A stretch of DNA of 31,954 nt from a virus (lineage: Duplodnaviria > Caudoviricetes): IMG/VR virus record IMGVR_UViG_3300008116_000655, positions 1 to 31,954 of that record; one strand, given 5' to 3'. Shown here in pieces: positions 6,570 to 31,918 of this stretch. The notes beneath the pieces are model-generated. The model was not told the origin of the DNA, did not search any database, and saw only the letters and a program-made list of their open reading frames with translations. Both the position numbers and the translations under genes were made by a program. Position 1 is the first letter of the stretch. The number at the start of each line of letters is the position of its first letter.

Positions 6570-8183
6570 TTATGCTCCCATCATCATAAATACATCTGGC
6601 AATGGATCAGTAGTGATCGATGCCCAAGATGCACTTGAACCATTTGTTGTTAAATACTTACCAGAGTTGCCAGTCTGTGATGGTAATACATCAACGGCTG
6701 CCCAAGATGTAGCAGATCCATTTGTTGTTAAGAATTTGCCAGAATTACCAGTTTGAGATGGAACTACATATCCTGCCGCCTCAGTAGCACTTGCAGCAGC
6801 ACTTGTTGCACTTGTAGCAGCAGATGATGCTGAAGTAGATGCTGAGTTAGCAGATGTCAAAGCAGACGATGCAGATGTACTTGCACTAGTTGCCGATGTA
6901 GCAGCCGAAGTTGCACTTGTGGCTGCACTAGAAGCAGATGTAGCTGCACTATTAGCAGAAGTCTGAGCATTAGATGCAATAGTTGAGATATTGATATAGG
7001 TCGATGTAGTTGTGTCTGCATCTGTAATAGATCCCATATCACGGACAATGCCAGCACCTGTTAGACCAGTAATTGAGGTATAACTATTGGCTGCTGAGGT
7101 AGCCGATGTCGCTGCTGAAGAAGCAGAGGTTGCTGCTGAAGTTGCCGATGTAGCAGCCGAAGTGGCTGAGGTGGCGGCAGAACTTGCTGAGGTTGCTGCA
7201 CTTGATGCAGAGTTTGCGGCAGAAGTAGCAGAGGTAGCAGCAGAAGAAGTCGATCCAAAGACTGTATCGATATAAGACTTAGGTACAGCATCGGTAGATG
7301 CAGTAGGTGTAGCAAGATCAGTAATCTTGTTATTACCCATGGACAAGGCACCAGTCATGCTGTCGCCAGCCTTGGCTACCTTGGTTGCAATCGAGTTAGT
7401 TACTGTGGTTGAGAAGCTTGCATCATCATTGATTGCAGCAGCCAACTCATTGAGGGTATCTAAGGCACCCGGAGCTGCATCAACCAAGTTAGAGATCTGA
7501 GTATCTACATAGGACTTAGTGGCAGCATCTGTGTTAGCAGATGGAGTACCAAGACCAGTTACTTTGTAACCACCAGCAGCAAGGTCTGTACCTAAAGTTG
7601 CACTAGATAGTGTCTTGCTTGAAAGGGTAGAAGCAACCCCATCAAGGGTTACTGTACCTGTGGCATTAGGAAGAGTGATTGTTCGATCTGCCGTTGGGTC
7701 AACCACAGTAAGGGTTGTCTCAAAACCATCGGCAGTTGCACCTTCAAATACGACTCCTGCTCCAAGAATTTCTGGAGCTGTAAGTTTCTTATTTGTAAGT
7801 GTCTGTGAATCAGTATCACCAACAACATTACCTGTGATGCCGTGGATTCCAGATGTTGTTGGGCTTGCTGTTGATCCAAGGTGAGCGGAAAATTCATTGA
7901 AGTCACGACCCGAAATAATGTGACGAACTGTTGCACCAGCAGAGTGGGCAACATTTGAGGTACCGTCTTCTCCACGAGTGACATTGAGTGTCGTTCCACC
8001 ACCAGAAGAAGTGACCGTAATGATTTCTTCTTTGTTGGTATCTGGATCGATAACCAGAGAATATGGATAGTTGGTTGGGAAGCCAGTCGTTAGATCCAAA
8101 GTAATCGAGGTAACAACACCATCGATTGAGGATGATAGCGAGGCTTGCTTTGCCGTTGAGGCATAGTATCTAGTTTGTGCCAT
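6570..8183 (-). CDS. Tail fibre protein
   Basis: 537 aa; DAATKSYVD, APGALDTLNELAAA, SAATSAT repeats and duplicated PSQTGNSGKxLTTNGS..SW. Confidence 0.8.
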   Translation of the reverse strand: MAQTRYYASTAKQASLSSSIDGVVTSITLDLTTGFPTNYPYSLVIDPDTNKEEIITVTSSGGGTTLNVTRGEDGTSNVAHSAGATVRHIISGRDFNEFSAHLGSTASPTTSGIHGITGNVVGDTDSQTLTNKKLTAPEILGAGVVFEGATADGFETTLTVVDPTADRTITLPNATGTVTLDGVASTLSSKTLSSATLGTDLAAGGYKVTGLGTPSANTDAATKSYVDTQISNLVDAAPGALDTLNELAAAINDDASFSTTVTNSIATKVAKAGDSMTGALSMGNNKITDLATPTASTDAVPKSYIDTVFGSTSSAATSATSAANSASSAATSASSAATSATSAATSATSAATSASSAATSATSAANSYTSITGLTGAGIVRDMGSITDADTTTSTYINISTIASNAQTSANSAATSASSAATSATSAATSATSASTSASSALTSANSASTSASSAATSATSAAASATEAAGYVVPSQTGNSGKFLTTNGSATSWAAVDVLPSQTGNSGKYLTTNGSSASWASITTDPLPDVFMMMGA

Positions 8184-8186
8184 TCG

Positions 8187-9089
8187 TTACCTCTTATAGT
8201 GGAGTCGGGGAGGATAAAGATCTCGTAGTCCAGCAGCTTCTTGCTGAAGTCGCTGAGTGTAAAGACCAAGGTAGAACCGAGCCGTTGAGGATCCTGCCCC
8301 AATAGGCTTGGTTTGATCGAGCATATCTGACTCGACAGATTGTGCAGGTACTCGAGCTGCATCGATATTCATAAGCAGACGAGCCATGGCACCGTATGTA
8401 ATACAGTCAACTGAACTTGATGGGAAACCTGTAACGGTTTCATACACATCACTATCAGAAGTCAGTACTGATGGAGCTTTAGCATAGACAACCTGAACTG
8501 TACGACCCGGATCGATAGAGTCAAAGATATTGATTGTCTTGCCATTGGCAAACTCTGTTGTGTTGGCTACCTTATCGGTATTGTAACGCCGAACATTGAG
8601 CCATTCTTTAGTAGATCCAATGGTCTGCCACTTAACATCAAGAACATATTCTGTAGTCGCTGGAAGCGAGTAAGTAGTTACTGCTGAGTTGAAGGAGAAG
8701 GTGTGGGTTCCTACTGCAAAGAGTTCTGGGTAGGAAGCCTGAATAGTATCGTTGATTGCATCCTTGATGAGTTTACGAGGATAGACAGGAGCAATAAGAA
8801 CCTTGGCATTATTGGCAGCAGTTGCTGCTGTAGTACCACGGAATCCTCGACCCCAAGGTGCAACGGTGACAGTCTTGGTTAGGTTGTCGACCTTATCTAC
8901 ATAGATGAGTTCATCACCAATCTCGATAAGACCACGACCCATCTGGTTGGTTTCATTCACAATAAATGTGGTAGCAGATGAAGTGATACCAGCCGCTTGA
9001 TTGATCCAAGTAGCAGTCTCTTGTTGAGCTGCACCACTTTGGATATTGAATGCAACCTTATCTACGAGTTGACCAAAAGTAATTGACAT
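8187..9089 (-). CDS. Head-tail adaptor / tail tubular protein A-like
   Basis: 300 aa, between the capsid-associated genes and the fibre; IEIGDELIYV...GRGFRGT domain. Confidence 0.6.
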   Translation of the reverse strand: MSITFGQLVDKVAFNIQSGAAQQETATWINQAAGITSSATTFIVNETNQMGRGLIEIGDELIYVDKVDNLTKTVTVAPWGRGFRGTTAATAANNAKVLIAPVYPRKLIKDAINDTIQASYPELFAVGTHTFSFNSAVTTYSLPATTEYVLDVKWQTIGSTKEWLNVRRYNTDKVANTTEFANGKTINIFDSIDPGRTVQVVYAKAPSVLTSDSDVYETVTGFPSSSVDCITYGAMARLLMNIDAARVPAQSVESDMLDQTKPIGAGSSTARFYLGLYTQRLQQEAAGLRDLYPPRLHYKR

Positions 9090-27299: not shown

Positions 27300-27449
27300 C
27301 TCAACTATGAGTGTGTTAGGGGGTCTTCGGTCGCTAGAAGCTCCCTACGCCCCCCTAGGGGCGTGTAGGTCGTCTAATTACCTTGGTCGGTAATTATCCT
27401 CCTACTATGTATAAGCCGGGATAAGGGGTGTTTATCCCACCCTAAGGGG

Positions 27450-27465
27450 TGTGATTTACCTCACA
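27450..27465. promoter_or_regulatory. CRP/GlxR-family consensus site
   Basis: TGTGA-TTTACC-TCACA, perfect TGTGA-N6-TCACA. Confidence 0.5.
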
Positions 27466-27675
27466 GTCTATCCAATGCAGTCAAATATGGCTTTGACCTG
27501 CGGTTTTACTGTCTCGGATCCTATCAAAAATTTTAGAGTGGGTACATATATACACAGGGTGGTGGCATATAAAGCACTCGGGTCATTTTGCCGGGGCGTG
27601 TCGAACCAGCTAGTTTACATAATGCATATTATCGGCGACCAGTTTGGGGGCATTTTGTGGAGACTTGCAGGGCAT

Positions 27676-27993
27676 GGCAGACCCTCAGGAACTAGGCACC
27701 TTTCAAAGTTCCCCAACTAACCAACCGCCTCAGTACTTGGCAGGGGGGGCAGGGGTCAGGGGCAGGGGGCAGAACTGGCAGGGCAGACCTTCAACCTTTG
27801 ACCCATTGGGCAGACCATCGCCACGGATCGCAAAGCATCCACGCCAAGGATCGAGAACCCTCCACGCTTGGCAGACCCCAAGGGGAAGCAGTTCCACGCT
27901 TGGAACCCCTCGAGCTGGACTTCGAGCTACAGGAAAACCCTTCCCGAAATGCTTCCAATCTGACCCCGAAAATGGGAGAATGGAACCCTCGAG
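27676..27993. repeat. Short direct-repeat array in the putative genome-end region
   Basis: GGCAGACC x4 (27676, 27782, 27809, 27870), TCCACGC x3, GAACCC(C)TC x3 and G-tracts at 27743-27769. Confidence 0.55.
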
Positions 27994-28026
27994 GGCATCC
28001 TCGAGACCTAGAGAAAAGGAATCAGA

Positions 28027-28338
28027 ATGAAACTCAAGAACCAAGACCAAGCATCCGAAGCAATCCAAAATCGAGAAGCGTTTCTTGCTTCTGCATTGTG
28101 GGCAATAGATGGAAGAAGCAACACCTACGGAATGCTCAACCCTGAAGAGATTGAACAATATGAAGCAGTTCGAGATTCGATTGACTTCGTGGTCATGTCT
28201 TACAAAACCCCAATCGCTTGGCACTCTTCTGCTGGTTGGTACATGGTCAAACAGAAGTTTTCTGTGACTACTTCACGCCATCAGGGAATCGTTAGAAGGG
28301 CATTGAATAGCAAAGGATTAGTCGAGGTTTCACGATGA
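28027..28338 (+). CDS. First early gene, hypothetical
   Basis: Strong RBS leader; VVMSYKTPIAW...KFSVTTSRHQ motif. Confidence 0.8.
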   Translation: MKLKNQDQASEAIQNREAFLASALWAIDGRSNTYGMLNPEEIEQYEAVRDSIDFVVMSYKTPIAWHSSAGWYMVKQKFSVTTSRHQGIVRRALNSKGLVEVSR

Positions 28339-28706
28339 AAACTTTCACCGCTTTCATTGTCTGCCAATCGTTAGACATTCAAGCCGAAACAATCGAAGAA
28401 GCAGAGGAAAGATATTCAGAGTTCTTCGATGGAGGGGAATCATGTGCAAAGCATGAAGAAGATTGTGACTGCTTCTCCTTCGATGATTCAAATGTCTTTC
28501 ATTACTTCGAAGAAGAAAACGAATCCGCTTCGTGGAAGTTGGTTCACCGATTGGCTTCTCAAATCTTCGAGAAGTTCGGAGAAACTGAATCATTTCTCTA
28601 TCTTGTCGAACAGATAGCAGAAGCAACCGAAGAAGATCCCATGAAAACCCTCTACGAGGTCAAGGCATACACCGACCGACAAACAAGGGAGGACATGGCG
28701 AGTTAG
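28335..28706 (+). CDS. Early hypothetical protein (acidic)
   Basis: ATGA overlap with the previous gene. Confidence 0.75.
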   Translation: MKTFTAFIVCQSLDIQAETIEEAEERYSEFFDGGESCAKHEEDCDCFSFDDSNVFHYFEEENESASWKLVHRLASQIFEKFGETESFLYLVEQIAEATEEDPMKTLYEVKAYTDRQTREDMAS

Positions 28707-28767
28707 TCGAAACCCCTTCGGGGGTCTTCGGTGGGGTGGTTCCCCCCGAACTGATGAGACAAACCAC
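28706..28767 (+). ncRNA. Type II hammerhead ribozyme 1
   Basis: GTC-GAAA-CCCC-TTCG-GGGG-TC^-TTCGG..CCGAA-CTGATGA-GAC; loop TGGTT pairs with the downstream AACCA; predicted cleavage after C28726. Confidence 0.92.
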
Positions 28768-28783
28768 TAGAGAAAGGGTCAGA

Positions 28784-29041
28784 ATGTACGAAGTAAAGAA
28801 AGTCCGACTCTTCGAGAACTCTCGAGGAATGATTGGACACACTCTCCACATCTACAGAGGAGAGAAGGAAATCGGGGAGTCCACCCATGACGGAGATTCC
28901 CTCTGCTACGACATCCGATTTATCTACTCCAGCGAGGAATGCGACTTCCTTGCAGAGTTCGGGGATGCACAAGATGGAGTTGACCAACTCCTCACCGCTT
29001 ACGAAGACCGACTCCTCCACGGATCGAAGAAGGGGGCGTGA
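28784..29041 (+). CDS. Early hypothetical protein (start MYEVKK at 28784)
   Basis: ATG follows the conserved leader; the upstream GTG start falls inside the ribozyme. Confidence 0.75.
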   Translation: MYEVKKVRLFENSRGMIGHTLHIYRGEKEIGESTHDGDSLCYDIRFIYSSEECDFLAEFGDAQDGVDQLLTAYEDRLLHGSKKGA

Positions 29042-29496
29042 GGTTAGAGATGCAAATCGAGCTACAGGAAAAAAGATTCCACGAATCTGTTGCACCTTGC
29101 AAAGATTTCGTGGCACATCCACACATGGTTGATTATGAAGTTCACGATATGAATGGGAACTTCCTACGGATGGAACACGGCGGTTGTTATGTCTGCCGAT
29201 GTTCTTCTGTTGCTGAAAGTGATGGAAGCAATGAACTTGCTCTTGCTCTCGAAGATGCTGGCATCAAATGCCAAGTCGAACAGACTGGTGGGTTCTGCAT
29301 GGTGGTCTATGTCTACTCAGAAGATATGAAGAAGGCATTGACCCTGACCACCGATGCCATTGGGTTCGAACCCGATGTCGAGGAAGGCATAGAGGAATGG
29401 GTTGACCTGACTCCAACTGAGGTTGCAGAAGGAAAGACTGCAATCGAAACGCTAGTCGAAACAACCAAGGCAAACCTTTGGAGGATTGGAAAATGA
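29038..29496 (+). CDS. Early hypothetical protein
   Basis: GTGA overlap; VEQTGGFCMV motif. Confidence 0.7.
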   Translation: MRLEMQIELQEKRFHESVAPCKDFVAHPHMVDYEVHDMNGNFLRMEHGGCYVCRCSSVAESDGSNELALALEDAGIKCQVEQTGGFCMVVYVYSEDMKKALTLTTDAIGFEPDVEEGIEEWVDLTPTEVAEGKTAIETLVETTKANLWRIGK

Positions 29497-29801
29497 AAAC
29501 TGGAATGACTTACATCTGCTCAACTTGTTGGGCAGAAGCATCAACGAATGCTGATTATGAAAAGCACATGGACATCTGCCAACCCGACAGAGTTCGAATG
29601 ACTGACCGCAAGAACATCAAGGTCGGCGACCAATGGTTCGACATGATGTTCTTCTCAGATGGTTCGATTCAAAGAACTTGCATCTCTTATGTGATGAAGG
29701 ATGGGAAGAGAGTGGCGATTCCAGATTGCCAAGCAAGGGTCTCTGATTGGGAAGCGAAGTGGCACTACTGCAAGAACTGCGATTGGAATCAAGCATCGTA
29801 A
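29493..29801 (+). CDS. Early protein with Cys/His zinc-finger-like motifs
   Basis: ATGA overlap; CSTC..H..C and C...CKNC. Confidence 0.7.
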   Translation: MKTGMTYICSTCWAEASTNADYEKHMDICQPDRVRMTDRKNIKVGDQWFDMMFFSDGSIQRTCISYVMKDGKRVAIPDCQARVSDWEAKWHYCKNCDWNQAS

Positions 29802-29865
29802 GTCGAAACCTCCCTTCGGGGAGGTCATGGGGAACTGGTCAACCCCATCTGATGAGACAGACCAC
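29802..29865 (+). ncRNA. Type II hammerhead ribozyme 2
   Basis: GTC-GAAA-CCTCCC-TTCG-GGGAGG-TC^-ATGGGG..CCCCAT-CTGATGA-GAC; loop TGGTC pairs with the downstream GACCA; predicted cleavage after C29826. Confidence 0.92.
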
Positions 29866-29883
29866 TAGAGAAAAGGAACAGAT

Positions 29884-30036
29884 ATGAAACTAACGAAGAG
29901 AGGAAAGCGAGTTCGTGCAGTAGCAATACTTCTCGGGATCATCGCTATCTATTATGTAATGACCCACATTTGGTGGGTTGGAGACCACTACTGCTGGGGC
30001 AGTATGGTCGAGTGCTACTTCGAGGAGGGAAAGTAA
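29884..30036 (+). CDS. Small membrane protein (50 aa, not in the ORF track)
   Basis: MKLTKRGKRVRAVAILLGIIAIYYVMTHIWWVGDHYCWGSMVECYFEEGK; strong RBS; TAATG coupling. Confidence 0.75.
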   Translation: MKLTKRGKRVRAVAILLGIIAIYYVMTHIWWVGDHYCWGSMVECYFEEGK

Positions 30037-30308
30037 TGAACAAAGCTGAAACTTTCCTCGATATGAACTACAAAGAATGGGAAGCAAAGTACAAACCAAT
30101 CGCCAGCGAAGATGGCTCTTGGTTCCATGACGATGCTGAGAAGTTGAAGACCTTCGATCCTAAACAGATTTGGACTTGGGTCTCTGAGGGAGATAGCGAT
30201 TGGATTTACAACGGATATCGCTGGATAAACAGACTCTCTTACCTAGTGACTGAAGTTGCTTGGCAAGAAGGCGAAGACATCTGTGTCGTAGTAAGGGAGA
30301 CCAAGTAA
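30036..30308 (+). CDS. Early hypothetical protein (start MNKAET)
   Basis: WEAKYKPI...IWTWV...GYRWINRLSYLVTE; coupled start. Confidence 0.75.
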   Translation: MNKAETFLDMNYKEWEAKYKPIASEDGSWFHDDAEKLKTFDPKQIWTWVSEGDSDWIYNGYRWINRLSYLVTEVAWQEGEDICVVVRETK

Positions 30309-30451
30309 TGACTGACCTAAACAATGAAGTGAAGGAACTTCACAAGTTGATTGGCGATTCATATTGTCGCTATGAGTTATCAGAAGATGCTTACAACCAT
30401 TGGTTGAAGTTGGCAGGAATACAGATACAGGAGGTATCAAGTAATGCCTAA
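30308..30451 (+). CDS. Small hypothetical protein (47 aa)
   Basis: TAATG coupling, RBS AAGGGAG. Confidence 0.6.
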   Translation: MTDLNNEVKELHKLIGDSYCRYELSEDAYNHWLKLAGIQIQEVSSNA

Positions 30452-30617
30452 GTTCAAAGTGAAGTATGTGTATGAACGCTGGTATGACCTCGAGCTGGAG
30501 GCTTCGAGTCGAGAGGAAGCACTCGATAAGTTCCATGCCGGTGATTTCGAAATCGAATCAAGGCTTGTCGGCGGCGAACTTCAAGATTCGGTGGTCATTG
30601 AGGAGGTCTTGGCATGA
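30444..30617 (+). CDS. Small hypothetical protein (57 aa, DpnD/PcfM-like pattern)
   Basis: MPKFKVKYVYERWYDLELEASSREEALDKF...; RBS AGGAGG. Confidence 0.65.
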   Translation: MPKFKVKYVYERWYDLELEASSREEALDKFHAGDFEIESRLVGGELQDSVVIEEVLA

Positions 30618-30775
30618 ACATTTATGACGAGAACAACAACTGCATCGAATGCATGGAGTACTTCTACGATCCGCATCAACCTGATTGCAAGTACTCAGAT
30701 GTCTGTGGCATCTGCGATTGCAAATGGGAATCATTCAGCAAGTCACTTGCCATCCATTGGAAGGTGAACAAATGA
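30614..30775 (+). CDS. Small Cys-rich protein (53 aa)
   Basis: MNIYDENNNCIECMEYFYDPHQPDCKYSDVCGICDC...; ATGA overlaps at both ends. Confidence 0.6.
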   Translation: MNIYDENNNCIECMEYFYDPHQPDCKYSDVCGICDCKWESFSKSLAIHWKVNK

Positions 30776-30987
30776 ACCACGGAAAACGACTTGAGAGAAT
30801 AGCCAAAGCCCAAGCCAAGGCTTTGATTGGAACTCTTACCTTGTTAGATGATGAAGGTCTAGGTGATAGCGACCTTTCTGCATTGCGAGGTTCACTTCGA
30901 TCATGGATTGAACACATAACTCCTATCAGGGAAAGTAAATGGGATAGAAAAGTCCACGATGATACAGACTGCGAGGTAGAAGAATGA
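30772..30987 (+). CDS. Early hypothetical protein (start MNHGKR)
   Basis: RBS AAGGTG, ATGA coupling. Confidence 0.65.
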   Translation: MNHGKRLERIAKAQAKALIGTLTLLDDEGLGDSDLSALRGSLRSWIEHITPIRESKWDRKVHDDTDCEVEE

Positions 30988-31301
30988 CTGAAAAGCTACA
31001 GAGAATCATCGTGTCCATCTATTCAAGCGATAACAATCTCCTTCTTGGAGACCTATCTCGCCGACTCGATGGGTTGGAATGGTGGATTACTGACCGCCAA
31101 TCCATCGAACTTGGTGAAAAGTACACATTCAATGCGGTATTCGAAACCAACAGACCGCTAACACAGAAAGAGTTCGATGACATCGAGAACACATTGCGAT
31201 TGCAACTCGATGAACCTTGGGTCGAACAAGGTGATGGACAATGGGATGATGCCGAGTTCGATCTATCGGTGATCACCTGTGAGATGAAGCAGGAGGGTTG
31301 A
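30984..31301 (+). CDS. Early hypothetical protein
   Basis: 105 aa, ATGA coupling. Confidence 0.7.
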   Translation: MTEKLQRIIVSIYSSDNNLLLGDLSRRLDGLEWWITDRQSIELGEKYTFNAVFETNRPLTQKEFDDIENTLRLQLDEPWVEQGDGQWDDAEFDLSVITCEMKQEG

Positions 31302-31429
31302 TGGGGTATGTACTCTTCTTCCTTTCCTTCTTCACCTTCCCACTTGGTATGAGTGAAGACTCACCCATACTGATGACGATTCCCTTCCTTGTATGGACAG
31401 GGGCAATCCTCTTTGGAGGAGAAAGGTAA
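31301..31429 (+). CDS. Small two-TM membrane protein (42 aa)
   Basis: MGYVLFFLSFFTFPLGMSEDSPILMTIPFLVWTGAILFGGER; RBS AGGAGG. Confidence 0.6.
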   Translation: MGYVLFFLSFFTFPLGMSEDSPILMTIPFLVWTGAILFGGER

Positions 31430-31432
31430 ACA

Positions 31433-31843
31433 ATGCACCGACTTATCATCGGTGGTCTCTTGTTGGGGGCGGTACTCATATCGCCCCCACTCAAGACCAT
31501 TGAAACCAAAGCTGAAACAAACCTCGTGGTTCAAGACATTCCAGTCGTGATTCACTACGAGGATATGACCTTCGATCATCTGCCACCGGCATGGCAGAAG
31601 CTGGCTATGTGTGAGAGTAGCGGCAGATCGAACGCAGTAGCAGGAACAAAGAAGCAGTTCCAAGGCTACTTCCAAATCGAATATCCCCGGACTTGGGTTG
31701 CTCACGGCGGCGATAGCGGCACACCACCCAAGAAGGCAACCCTGATGGAGCAGTTCCATGTGGCACTACACATCTATGCTGACCGAGGATCGAAGCCGTG
31801 GCCATACTGTGGCAAGTTCCTGAAGGCGGAATACGGCAAATAG
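31433..31843 (+). CDS. rpf: Resuscitation-promoting-factor-like lytic transglycosylase with signal peptide
   Basis: WQKLAMCESSG (catalytic Glu), GYFQI...TW...GG, A...EQ...A, PWPYCG, matching the Rpf domain. Confidence 0.85.
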   Translation: MHRLIIGGLLLGAVLISPPLKTIETKAETNLVVQDIPVVIHYEDMTFDHLPPAWQKLAMCESSGRSNAVAGTKKQFQGYFQIEYPRTWVAHGGDSGTPPKKATLMEQFHVALHIYADRGSKPWPYCGKFLKAEYGK

Positions 31844-31856
31844 TGGTACGATAAAT

Positions 31857-31914
31857 GTAGTGGATCTGATCCTCCACTCTAGGGAAAGGCCCCCTCTTCG
31901 GAGGGGGTTCTTTC
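31857..31914 (+). ncRNA. Putative antisense small RNA complementary to the three early RBS leaders
   Basis: Extended -10 TGgTACGAT (31844-31852), hairpin AGTGGA-TCTGATCC-TCCACT, then a terminator; reverse complement of 31865-31883 = CCTAGAGTGGAGGATCAGA. Confidence 0.55.
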
Positions 31915-31918
31915 ATTT
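31884..31918 (+). terminator. Rho-independent terminator ending the early operon / sRNA
   Basis: GGCCCCCTC-TTCG-GAGGGGGTT followed by CTTTCATTT. Confidence 0.8.

Follow-up and report, generated by a model that had tools for sequence, protein, structure and literature searches.

The window, by which we mean the whole stretch of DNA that was analysed, is a complete virus record of 31,954 bases. Its minus strand carries the terminase, portal, capsid and tail genes, and its plus strand carries a cassette of small genes of unknown function (28027-31843) which is opened by the gene at 28027-28338 and closed by a gene for a transglycosylase-like (Rpf-like) protein. On a near-identical longer contig the sequence continues beyond the window with converging genes for a sigma-region-4 protein, a primase, DnaB, WhiB and a nuclease. 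The predicted small RNA gene described here lies behind the Rpf-like gene, which separates it from its putative target genes, and is faced by two converging genes, one unannotated and the other that of the sigma-region-4 protein. The presence of WhiB and of an Rpf-like gene suggests that the host is an actinobacterium, and the position and gene type of the plus-strand cassette suggest that it is expressed early. By terminase, the nearest named cultivated phages are the Streptomyces cluster BF podoviruses at ~ 43% identity, no close cultivated relative of the phage being found, and the genome contigs searched contained no prophage or close host copy, with 2 distant matches only. Tyrosine integrase, serine recombinase and HTH_3 repressor were absent from all five related genomes searched, four of which are at least 90% complete. 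Between terminase and cassette, the non-coding stretch 27300-28000 contains short imperfect repeats (27819-27914) and a GC-rich run (27740-27790), is sparsely covered by contigs from RNA runs, and is likely a genome end or an early promoter region. In the near-identical relative L100, a C5 DNA methyltransferase is split over two ORFs (7282-8612). The features of the locus are the following.

28007..28029, plus strand: leader 1, CCTAGAG AAAA GGAATCAGA ATG, of the gene at 28027-28338 (cofold -11.2 kcal/mol, rank 3 of 315)
28705..28768, plus strand: type II hammerhead directly 5' of leader 2 (RF02276, 40.2 bits; predicted cut after 28726)
28767..28786, plus strand: leader 2, CTAGAG AAA GGGTCAGA ATG, of the gene at 28784-29041 (cofold -14.7 kcal/mol, rank 1 of 315)
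29479..29495, plus strand: possible weaker fourth target, TGGAGGATTGG, ahead of gene 29493 (seed-duplex rank 3; cofold -8.9 kcal/mol)
29801..29866, plus strand: type II hammerhead directly 5' of leader 3 (RF02276, 46 bits; predicted cut after 29826)
29865..29886, plus strand: leader 3, CTAGAG AAAA GGAACAGA T ATG, of the gene at 29884-30036 (cofold -13.6 kcal/mol, rank 2 of 315)
31433..31843, plus strand: transglycosylase-like (Rpf-like) protein gene (PF06737, E 1.7e-11; phrog_29757)
31844..31852, plus strand: predicted promoter of the small RNA, extended -10 box TGn-TACGAT (from the sequence)
31859..31915, plus strand: predicted small RNA, ~ 57 nt (from the fold)
31859..31878, plus strand: 5' hairpin of 6 bp, AGUGGA/UCCACU (predicted fold)
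31865..31872, plus strand: putative seed I, loop UCUGAUCC, complement of the lower leader box (unpaired in the ensemble)
31876..31883, plus strand: putative seed II, ACUCUAGG, complement of the upper leader box CCUAGAG (covariation with CCTAGAG versus CCTACAG)
31888..31918, plus strand: predicted intrinsic terminator hairpin and U tract (stem 31888-31909)

The earlier note had placed a small RNA candidate at 31844-31914. From 31859 on this placement stands, whereas 31844-31858 is predicted promoter. Both ends of the RNA are predictions, the 5' end by its spacing from the -10 box and the 3' end by the U tract, and the extended -10 box at 31844-31852 was not listed by a consensus promoter scanner. 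The loop of the 5' hairpin reads TCTGATCC (31865-31872) and is held between the arms AGTGGA (31859-64) and TCCACT (31873-78); CTCTAG lies at 31877-82, and a CUAGG linker joins the 5' hairpin to the terminator. The loop had been claimed to be exposed, which the fold ensemble bears out, and the CUAG of the flank is likewise unpaired in the predicted fold. Having a promoter and a terminator of its own and no conserved ORF, the unit looks, by its sequence only, like a small RNA gene. A search of Rfam gave no family match for the element, sub-threshold matches being treated as chance. A minus-strand ORF overlapping it (31605-31916) was rejected, as the region varies by indels among relatives. On that strand, as had been stated before, the inverted motif has no start codon behind it at normal spacing.

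Contigs from the RNA runs of two studies extend from the Rpf-like gene to 31868 and stop there without a loose end, and a run that is probably DNA spans the stretch beyond 31868 with a contig break at that position. Of 11 runs, all in the form of assembled contigs, five were compared with the window, and no contig from the true RNA runs among them covers 31869-31915. The stop at 31868 is at most a weak hint and says nothing on a 57-nt RNA. The contigs reaching 31868 from the gene make read-through likely and, together with the finding that no terminator is seen between the Rpf-like gene and the hairpin, would also suit an element that is the mere 3' end of an early polycistronic mRNA, folding back on the leaders in cis. 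We hold this to be very unlikely, since three leaders cannot be covered by one end, the hammerhead cuts would part leaders 1 and 2 from the RNA, and a promoter of its own is kept across relatives although the sequence of that promoter changes.

All three leaders have an upper box CUAGAG, an A-rich middle and a lower box resembling GG(A/G)UCAGA, and this two-box pattern has no further copy in the window. From 27.2 kb on, the plus strand holds exactly three copies of CTAGAG (28008, 28767 and 29865), each 17-19 nt upstream of an ATG, and the whole window has 6 copies against 16.3 expected from shuffles, a depletion that would sharpen seed specificity. By sequence and cofold, the loop at 31865-31872 can pair as the earlier note had claimed, with one bulge in GGAATCAGA, one G-U in GGGTCAGA and one mismatch in GGAACAGA, and the flank CUCUAG(G) can pair with the invariant CUAGAG, which is the upper box in all three leaders. 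The target had been given as the spacer between Shine-Dalgarno sequence and AUG. Pairing near the start codon is retained, but the lower box in fact overlaps the 3' end of the Shine-Dalgarno sequence. In leader 2 the latter is AGAAAGG (28771-28777), which is contained in the complement of GGATCACCTCCTTTCT, a 16S-tail motif that is present in 38 of 61 genomes of the phylum (35 of 58 without three unpublished ones; no 16S gene was found in G006). Since this AGAAAGG lies as an exact copy in leader 2, the boxes overlap both ends of the Shine-Dalgarno sequence.

The cofold ranks given above are among 315 ATG starts (ORFs of at least 45 aa) and count the cost of opening structure. With seed-only duplexes over the same starts, leaders 1, 2 and 3 take ranks 2, 1 and 6. 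In a raw duplex scan with 30-nt windows two non-self sites scored better than leader 2, and the 25 sites listed did not include leaders 1 and 3; on this genome alone the single pairings are modest. The leader of gene 29493 possibly pairs through the CCUCC part of the RNA; the GGAGG-type leaders of genes 29493 and 31433 can both pair with this CCUCC and may be weaker targets. As for the structure of the leaders themselves, the Shine-Dalgarno region of leader 2 is predicted to be partly paired with its own coding sequence, and leader 3 is predicted to be open without the RNA.

Both hammerheads exceed the RF02276 gathering score of 37 and have the CUGAUGA and GAAA cores. None of the contigs from RNA runs bridges either predicted cut, and as both spots are strain-variable this says little on self-cleavage. 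By inspection, the loop of hammerhead stem I can pair with an ACCAC/GACCA stretch that ends at the target box of the small RNA. Type II hammerheads that flank phage gene blocks have been proposed to cut long phage transcripts into blocks (PMC3088659), and the two ribozymes of the window are members of RF02276. They differ from the described ones in that each ribozyme ends at a small RNA target box, a coupling that is not mentioned in the text available of PMC3088659. When 16 other loci were scanned with Rfam, a hammerhead was found in only one, though boxes were present; hence the ribozymes do not belong to the system in general. A degenerate hammerhead-like core (CUGAAGA ... GAAA), below the Rfam threshold, precedes a CCTACAG leader in L016 (~ 320-440) and L019 (~ 1960-2070).

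Searches with the Rpf-like protein gathered 87 loci (80, and 7 new from later searches). Alignment of the intergenic region across these relatives, which had been put forward as a check, showed a short hairpin-terminator unit behind the Rpf-like gene in 86 of the 87, with seeds that change with the leader boxes; the remaining locus breaks off at the stop codon. In 81 of the 86 loci the first hairpin begins 4-8 nt after a TANNNT box, and 82 have either an extended -10 or a -35/-10 pair, the promoter sequence itself turning over, and relatives carry different terminator stems at the same place. The plus strand gives the more stable fold in 20 of 27 distinct RNAs. In many relatives (among them L008, L017 and L074) an imperfect palindrome, ATGCC-n-GGCAT, lies between the -35 and -10 of the small RNA, just behind the Rpf-like stop codon; it is missing from the window and is possibly an operator. 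The RNAs of the 86 loci sort into nine classes, as listed here.

Class A1: the RNA type of the window, loop UCUGAUCC
Class A2: loop CUUGAUCC
Class A3: loop UUGAUUC
Class A4: two bases lost, giving CACUAGG
Class A5: CUCGGU in place of CUCUAGG
Classes B, C and D1: ACUGUAGG in the 8-nt loop of the terminal hairpin
Class D2: ACUCUAGG in the 8-nt loop of the terminal hairpin

ACT[C/G]TAGG is kept in seven of the nine classes, being altered in A4 and A5, and three classes show the flank seed alone, in an 8-nt hairpin loop. By sequence comparison, the most conserved element is this putative flank seed, ACU[C/G]UAGG, rather than the loop. The loop had been regarded as the main seed; its variants do track the lower box, but the flank seed is the more conserved of the two. 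In the single-seed classes B, C and D (6 sequences) 7 of 12 stem pairs covary, and the 8-nt loop varies solely at the C/G position of the seed. For the 5' stem of class A, all 76 filled cells pair across 13 aligned variants; this stem is near-invariant, with one pair changed on both sides, and 41 of 500 shuffles scored as high. In class B (L016, L019, L027) the first hairpin is an extra one, with loop AAUAGACA or ACUAGACA and without a clear target; in L019 and L021 it might pair with AUGUCUAU, where the first cassette gene starts. Searches through the promoter palindrome and the converging gene yielded no further seed classes (six extra loci were left out).

For the comparison of seeds with leaders, duplicates and loci with less than 2.5 kb upstream were dropped, which left 54 of the 86 loci, and a CCTACAG box was counted when it lay 15-27 nt before a start codon. 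There were 66 such boxes, found in all 24 phages with seed ACUGUAGG and in 0 of the 30 others. The lower box behaves likewise: the 9 phages with loop UCUGAUCC have 29 boxes of GGATCAG type versus 6 of GGATCAA type, the 20 phages of A2-A4 (UUGAU loop) have 2 versus 57, and the 25 phages lacking the 5' hairpin have 1 and 6. Counts of CCTAG/CTAGAG were set aside, as some sites were counted twice. The rarer classes show matching changes, as A3 leaders (loop UUGAUUC) read GGAATCAA, A4 leaders (CACUAGG) read CCTAGTG, and ACCGA occurs in one leader of A5 (CUCGGU). Homologous genes follow the class of their phage: in a 160-aa gene family the box is CCTACAG for phages of B, C and D1 but CCTAG for those of A3 and D2. 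Three families of homologous genes show GGATCAA in A2 and GGATCAG in A5. In four near-complete relatives, boxes that are followed by an A-rich run and then a start codon are concentrated in the cassette, and scattered single boxes occur elsewhere.

The boxes were defined after the data had been viewed, and two checks were run, a blind energy test and a count in later loci. The blind assignment by energy chose the cognate seed in 36 of 54 phages, compared with a shuffled mean of 12.4 and maximum of 22 in 10,000 shuffles; 15 of the 18 misses fall in phages without an RNA of ACUGUAGG type. Among the later-fetched loci (13 with at least 2 kb upstream, from the same populations and with lineages that are not independent), CCTACAG occurs in 5 of 6 ACUGUAGG phages versus 0 of 7 others. 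When the classes are mapped on a tree of 49 Rpf-like proteins, 13 changes are required against a minimum of 8, and thus the Rpf-like gene, lying between RNA and targets, recombines. No upper-box mismatch was seen despite the scattering of the classes over this tree. Some fits are imperfect: an A1 phage (L010) has a GGGTCAA box, the A2 phages L040 and L051 keep GGGTCAG, and two of three A5 leaders are without the upper box. The number of independent compensatory events is about five rather than 54, given that the phages are related and that each seed variant may have arisen once. In these sequence comparisons both seeds covary with the leader boxes, as those of a trans antisense RNA should. The antisense reading of the earlier note gains support from this and from the frame of promoter and terminator around the unit. 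We consider the element a real, uncatalogued phage small RNA candidate, for which the comparative support for trans pairing is unusually strong.

The covariation bears on two readings in which the leaders are not the targets of an RNA. An ordinary terminator, or a generic anti-Shine-Dalgarno RNA directed against host mRNAs, would match the phage leaders incidentally; the RNA of the window has a CCUCC and resembles the 16S tail motif, and its raw duplex energies are unremarkable. Yet the Shine-Dalgarno core does not contain the covarying letters, no CCUCC lies in a loop in classes B, C and D, and a split of 24 of 24 versus 0 of 30 is impossible by rRNA mimicry, so that this reading is largely refuted and has hardly any probability left. 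The boxes could otherwise be sites for a protein binding DNA or RNA, with 31865-31883 as a decoy or inverted site. On double-stranded DNA, seed and box are one motif in opposite orientations, so a change of protein specificity would also give covariation, and the phage encodes WhiB and a sigma-region-4 protein. A test of G-U orientation did not discriminate (A>G 9, G>A 4, changes that are not independent), though G-U-compatible box variants do occur (GGGTCAG, GGATCGA), which argues against a protein. Moreover, the inverted copy stands in predicted unpaired parts of several different folds and starts a promoter-terminator unit, and the two boxes change independently, in about five combinations, at variable spacing. 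The box-to-box distance indeed differs between leaders and therefore suits RNA pairing. Taken with this evidence, binding by a protein seems quite unlikely.

Our preferred reading, to which we give a probability of roughly 70%, is that of a stand-alone phage small RNA which pairs in trans with both sides of the Shine-Dalgarno sequence of three likely-early genes and blocks their translation. It is carried by the complementarity of RNA and leaders, the conserved frame of promoter, hairpin and terminator and the covariation of seeds and boxes. The host housekeeping polymerase would make the RNA from its own promoter, with some added by read-through of the cassette. Seed II would pair with the box that lies just 5' of the Shine-Dalgarno site and overlaps it, and seed I with the one at the 3' end of this site; the A-rich part of the leader between them would be looped out or cross a retained stem. 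From this geometry, the RNA would cover the ribosome landing site and the translation of the first gene of each block would fall; coupled downstream genes would follow the drop of the first, and where hammerheads cut, each gene block would start with its own target.

Covariation reveals pairing and not the sign of its effect, and the RNA might pair with the leaders without repressing them, for instance by stabilising the hammerhead-cut mRNA, guiding its processing or raising translation. Two of the three targets begin close behind a predicted hammerhead cut, and the predicted partial pairing of the leader 2 Shine-Dalgarno sequence with its own coding sequence also speaks for such a role. We judge this unlikely, for the RNA covers the same bases that would have to be freed, leader 3 is predicted to be open already, and most of the box-carrying loci scanned have no hammerhead. 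Under the preferred, repressing reading, the simplest role would be a delayed shut-off of the early genes of the resident phage as the RNA accumulates, and possibly also a barrier to phages that arrive later and share its class of seed.

Among known phage RNAs, C4 of P1 and P7 (RF01695) is the closest in design: it is encoded by a phage and, as an antisense RNA, controls genes of the phage in trans. C4 is made from the operon that is under its control and represses an antirepressor in a temperate phage. According to Citron and Schuster (1990), C4 reportedly pairs through two short seeds, with compensatory changes. For the RNA of the window a separate promoter is predicted, its targets, three or more in number, are separate from one another and 1.9-3.9 kb away, and there is no immI-like operon with icd and antirepressor genes around it, its genomes being without detected integrase or HTH_3; moreover, the C4 covariance model gave no match, neither at gathering score nor with E relaxed to 10. 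By analogy the RNA would work like C4, but it falls outside the C4 family, with no model match and a different context. In P1 and P7, small differences in the immI sequence are described as making the phages heteroimmune (PMC6906374 and PMC8201110, in the text available). The sar RNA of P22, OOP of lambda and STnc6030 of BTP1 are small cis-encoded phage RNAs which, in the available part of PMC12197685, base-pair to block translation or exclude superinfecting phage. The RNA of the window shares with them that it is small and is predicted to act on phage genes through base-pairing, and differs in having short imperfect seeds and several distant targets where each of those is antisense to a single one.

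A second comparison is with the start-associated sequences (SAS) of cluster K mycobacteriophages and cluster EF Microbacterium phages, described in the available text as a motif over the ribosome binding site of several non-structural genes that is conserved beyond rRNA pairing (PMC3203893, PMC7302621). A single inverted copy occurs in four K1 genomes, the binding partner being left open in that text (PMC3203893), and in 2024-2025 the role of SAS was still called unknown or unverified in the available parts of PMC11373665 and PMC12699233. The likeness lies in an asymmetric motif that stands at the ribosome binding sites of several non-structural genes and has one inverted copy; the window has three plus-strand leader copies and an inverted one within the predicted RNA gene. 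The window differs in having another sequence, two boxes and 3-4 targets versus 11-19 for SAS, and in that its inverted copy has a promoter and a terminator around it, as a predicted RNA gene, and changes together with the target boxes, whereas SAS, in the texts available, is described without a partner RNA. By inspection of the leaders, the 13-bp cluster K consensus is not found in the window. In Anaya, the inverted SAS makes up a hairpin loop of 10 nt on the mRNA-like strand, in a non-coding gap (L148, ~ 34850-34920; record 59850-59920). Loops of this kind were also examined in the stretches L151, L152, L153 and L158. Over nine cluster K stretches the exact anti-SAS loop is present in five, partial in one (DarthP) and absent in three, namely the fetched stretches of Yuna, ShedlockHolmes and Scarlett. 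The stems of these hairpins differ, and once the hairpin sits at another place in the genome. No covariation of seed and SAS was seen in cluster K, where the DarthP loop has lost one base with the SAS unchanged. The anti-SAS hairpin of Adephagia is located before gene 93, and late transcription of this phage is reported to begin between genes 92 and 93.

In the Streptomyces BF phages, a CUCUCUCC loop on a long stem was found in six of six examined (minus strand, L147 at 38390-38520, and also in L149, L150 and L159-L161). Its complement, AAGGG(G)AGAGA, stands in the leaders of about nine cassette genes (three cassettes). The gene right behind the CUCUCUCC hairpin uses a different Shine-Dalgarno site. 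With no covariation, and being close to plain anti-Shine-Dalgarno sequence, the loops of cluster K and BF are leads only.

That a seed and three or four targets change jointly is hard to obtain by drift and hence suggests, speculatively, that new specificities have been selected for, as would happen where related phages exclude one another. We tentatively extend this to a wider proposal, which as a whole we think more doubtful than probable: non-integrating actinophages would carry a swappable RNA lock-and-key, in which one small RNA silences the early cassette, the seed classes are superinfection-exclusion groups set by RNA only, and the SAS design and a cluster K off-switch belong to the same scheme. 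If true, this would explain why the seed and three or four targets change in step and would account for the start-associated sequences of cultivated actinophages, and the cluster K anti-SAS hairpin could be a late-made off-switch for SAS genes. In the literature searched, mainly open-access texts without supplements, neither a description of this RNA nor a partner RNA of SAS was found. Whether the RNA is new may also depend on the SAS figures of PMC3203893 and on the motif catalogues of PMC5737381 and PMC2864571.

Most predicted pairs of small RNA and target rest on a computed duplex, and here the support comes from natural compensatory changes of one RNA versus several distant mRNAs. The natural seed classes would offer partly orthogonal pairs of RNA repressor and leader. 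The function of SAS, open since 2011, gains a testable idea in phages that grow on laboratory hosts. For the phages themselves, the finding points to a protein-free control of early genes in a widespread freshwater group in which no repressor or integrase has been detected.
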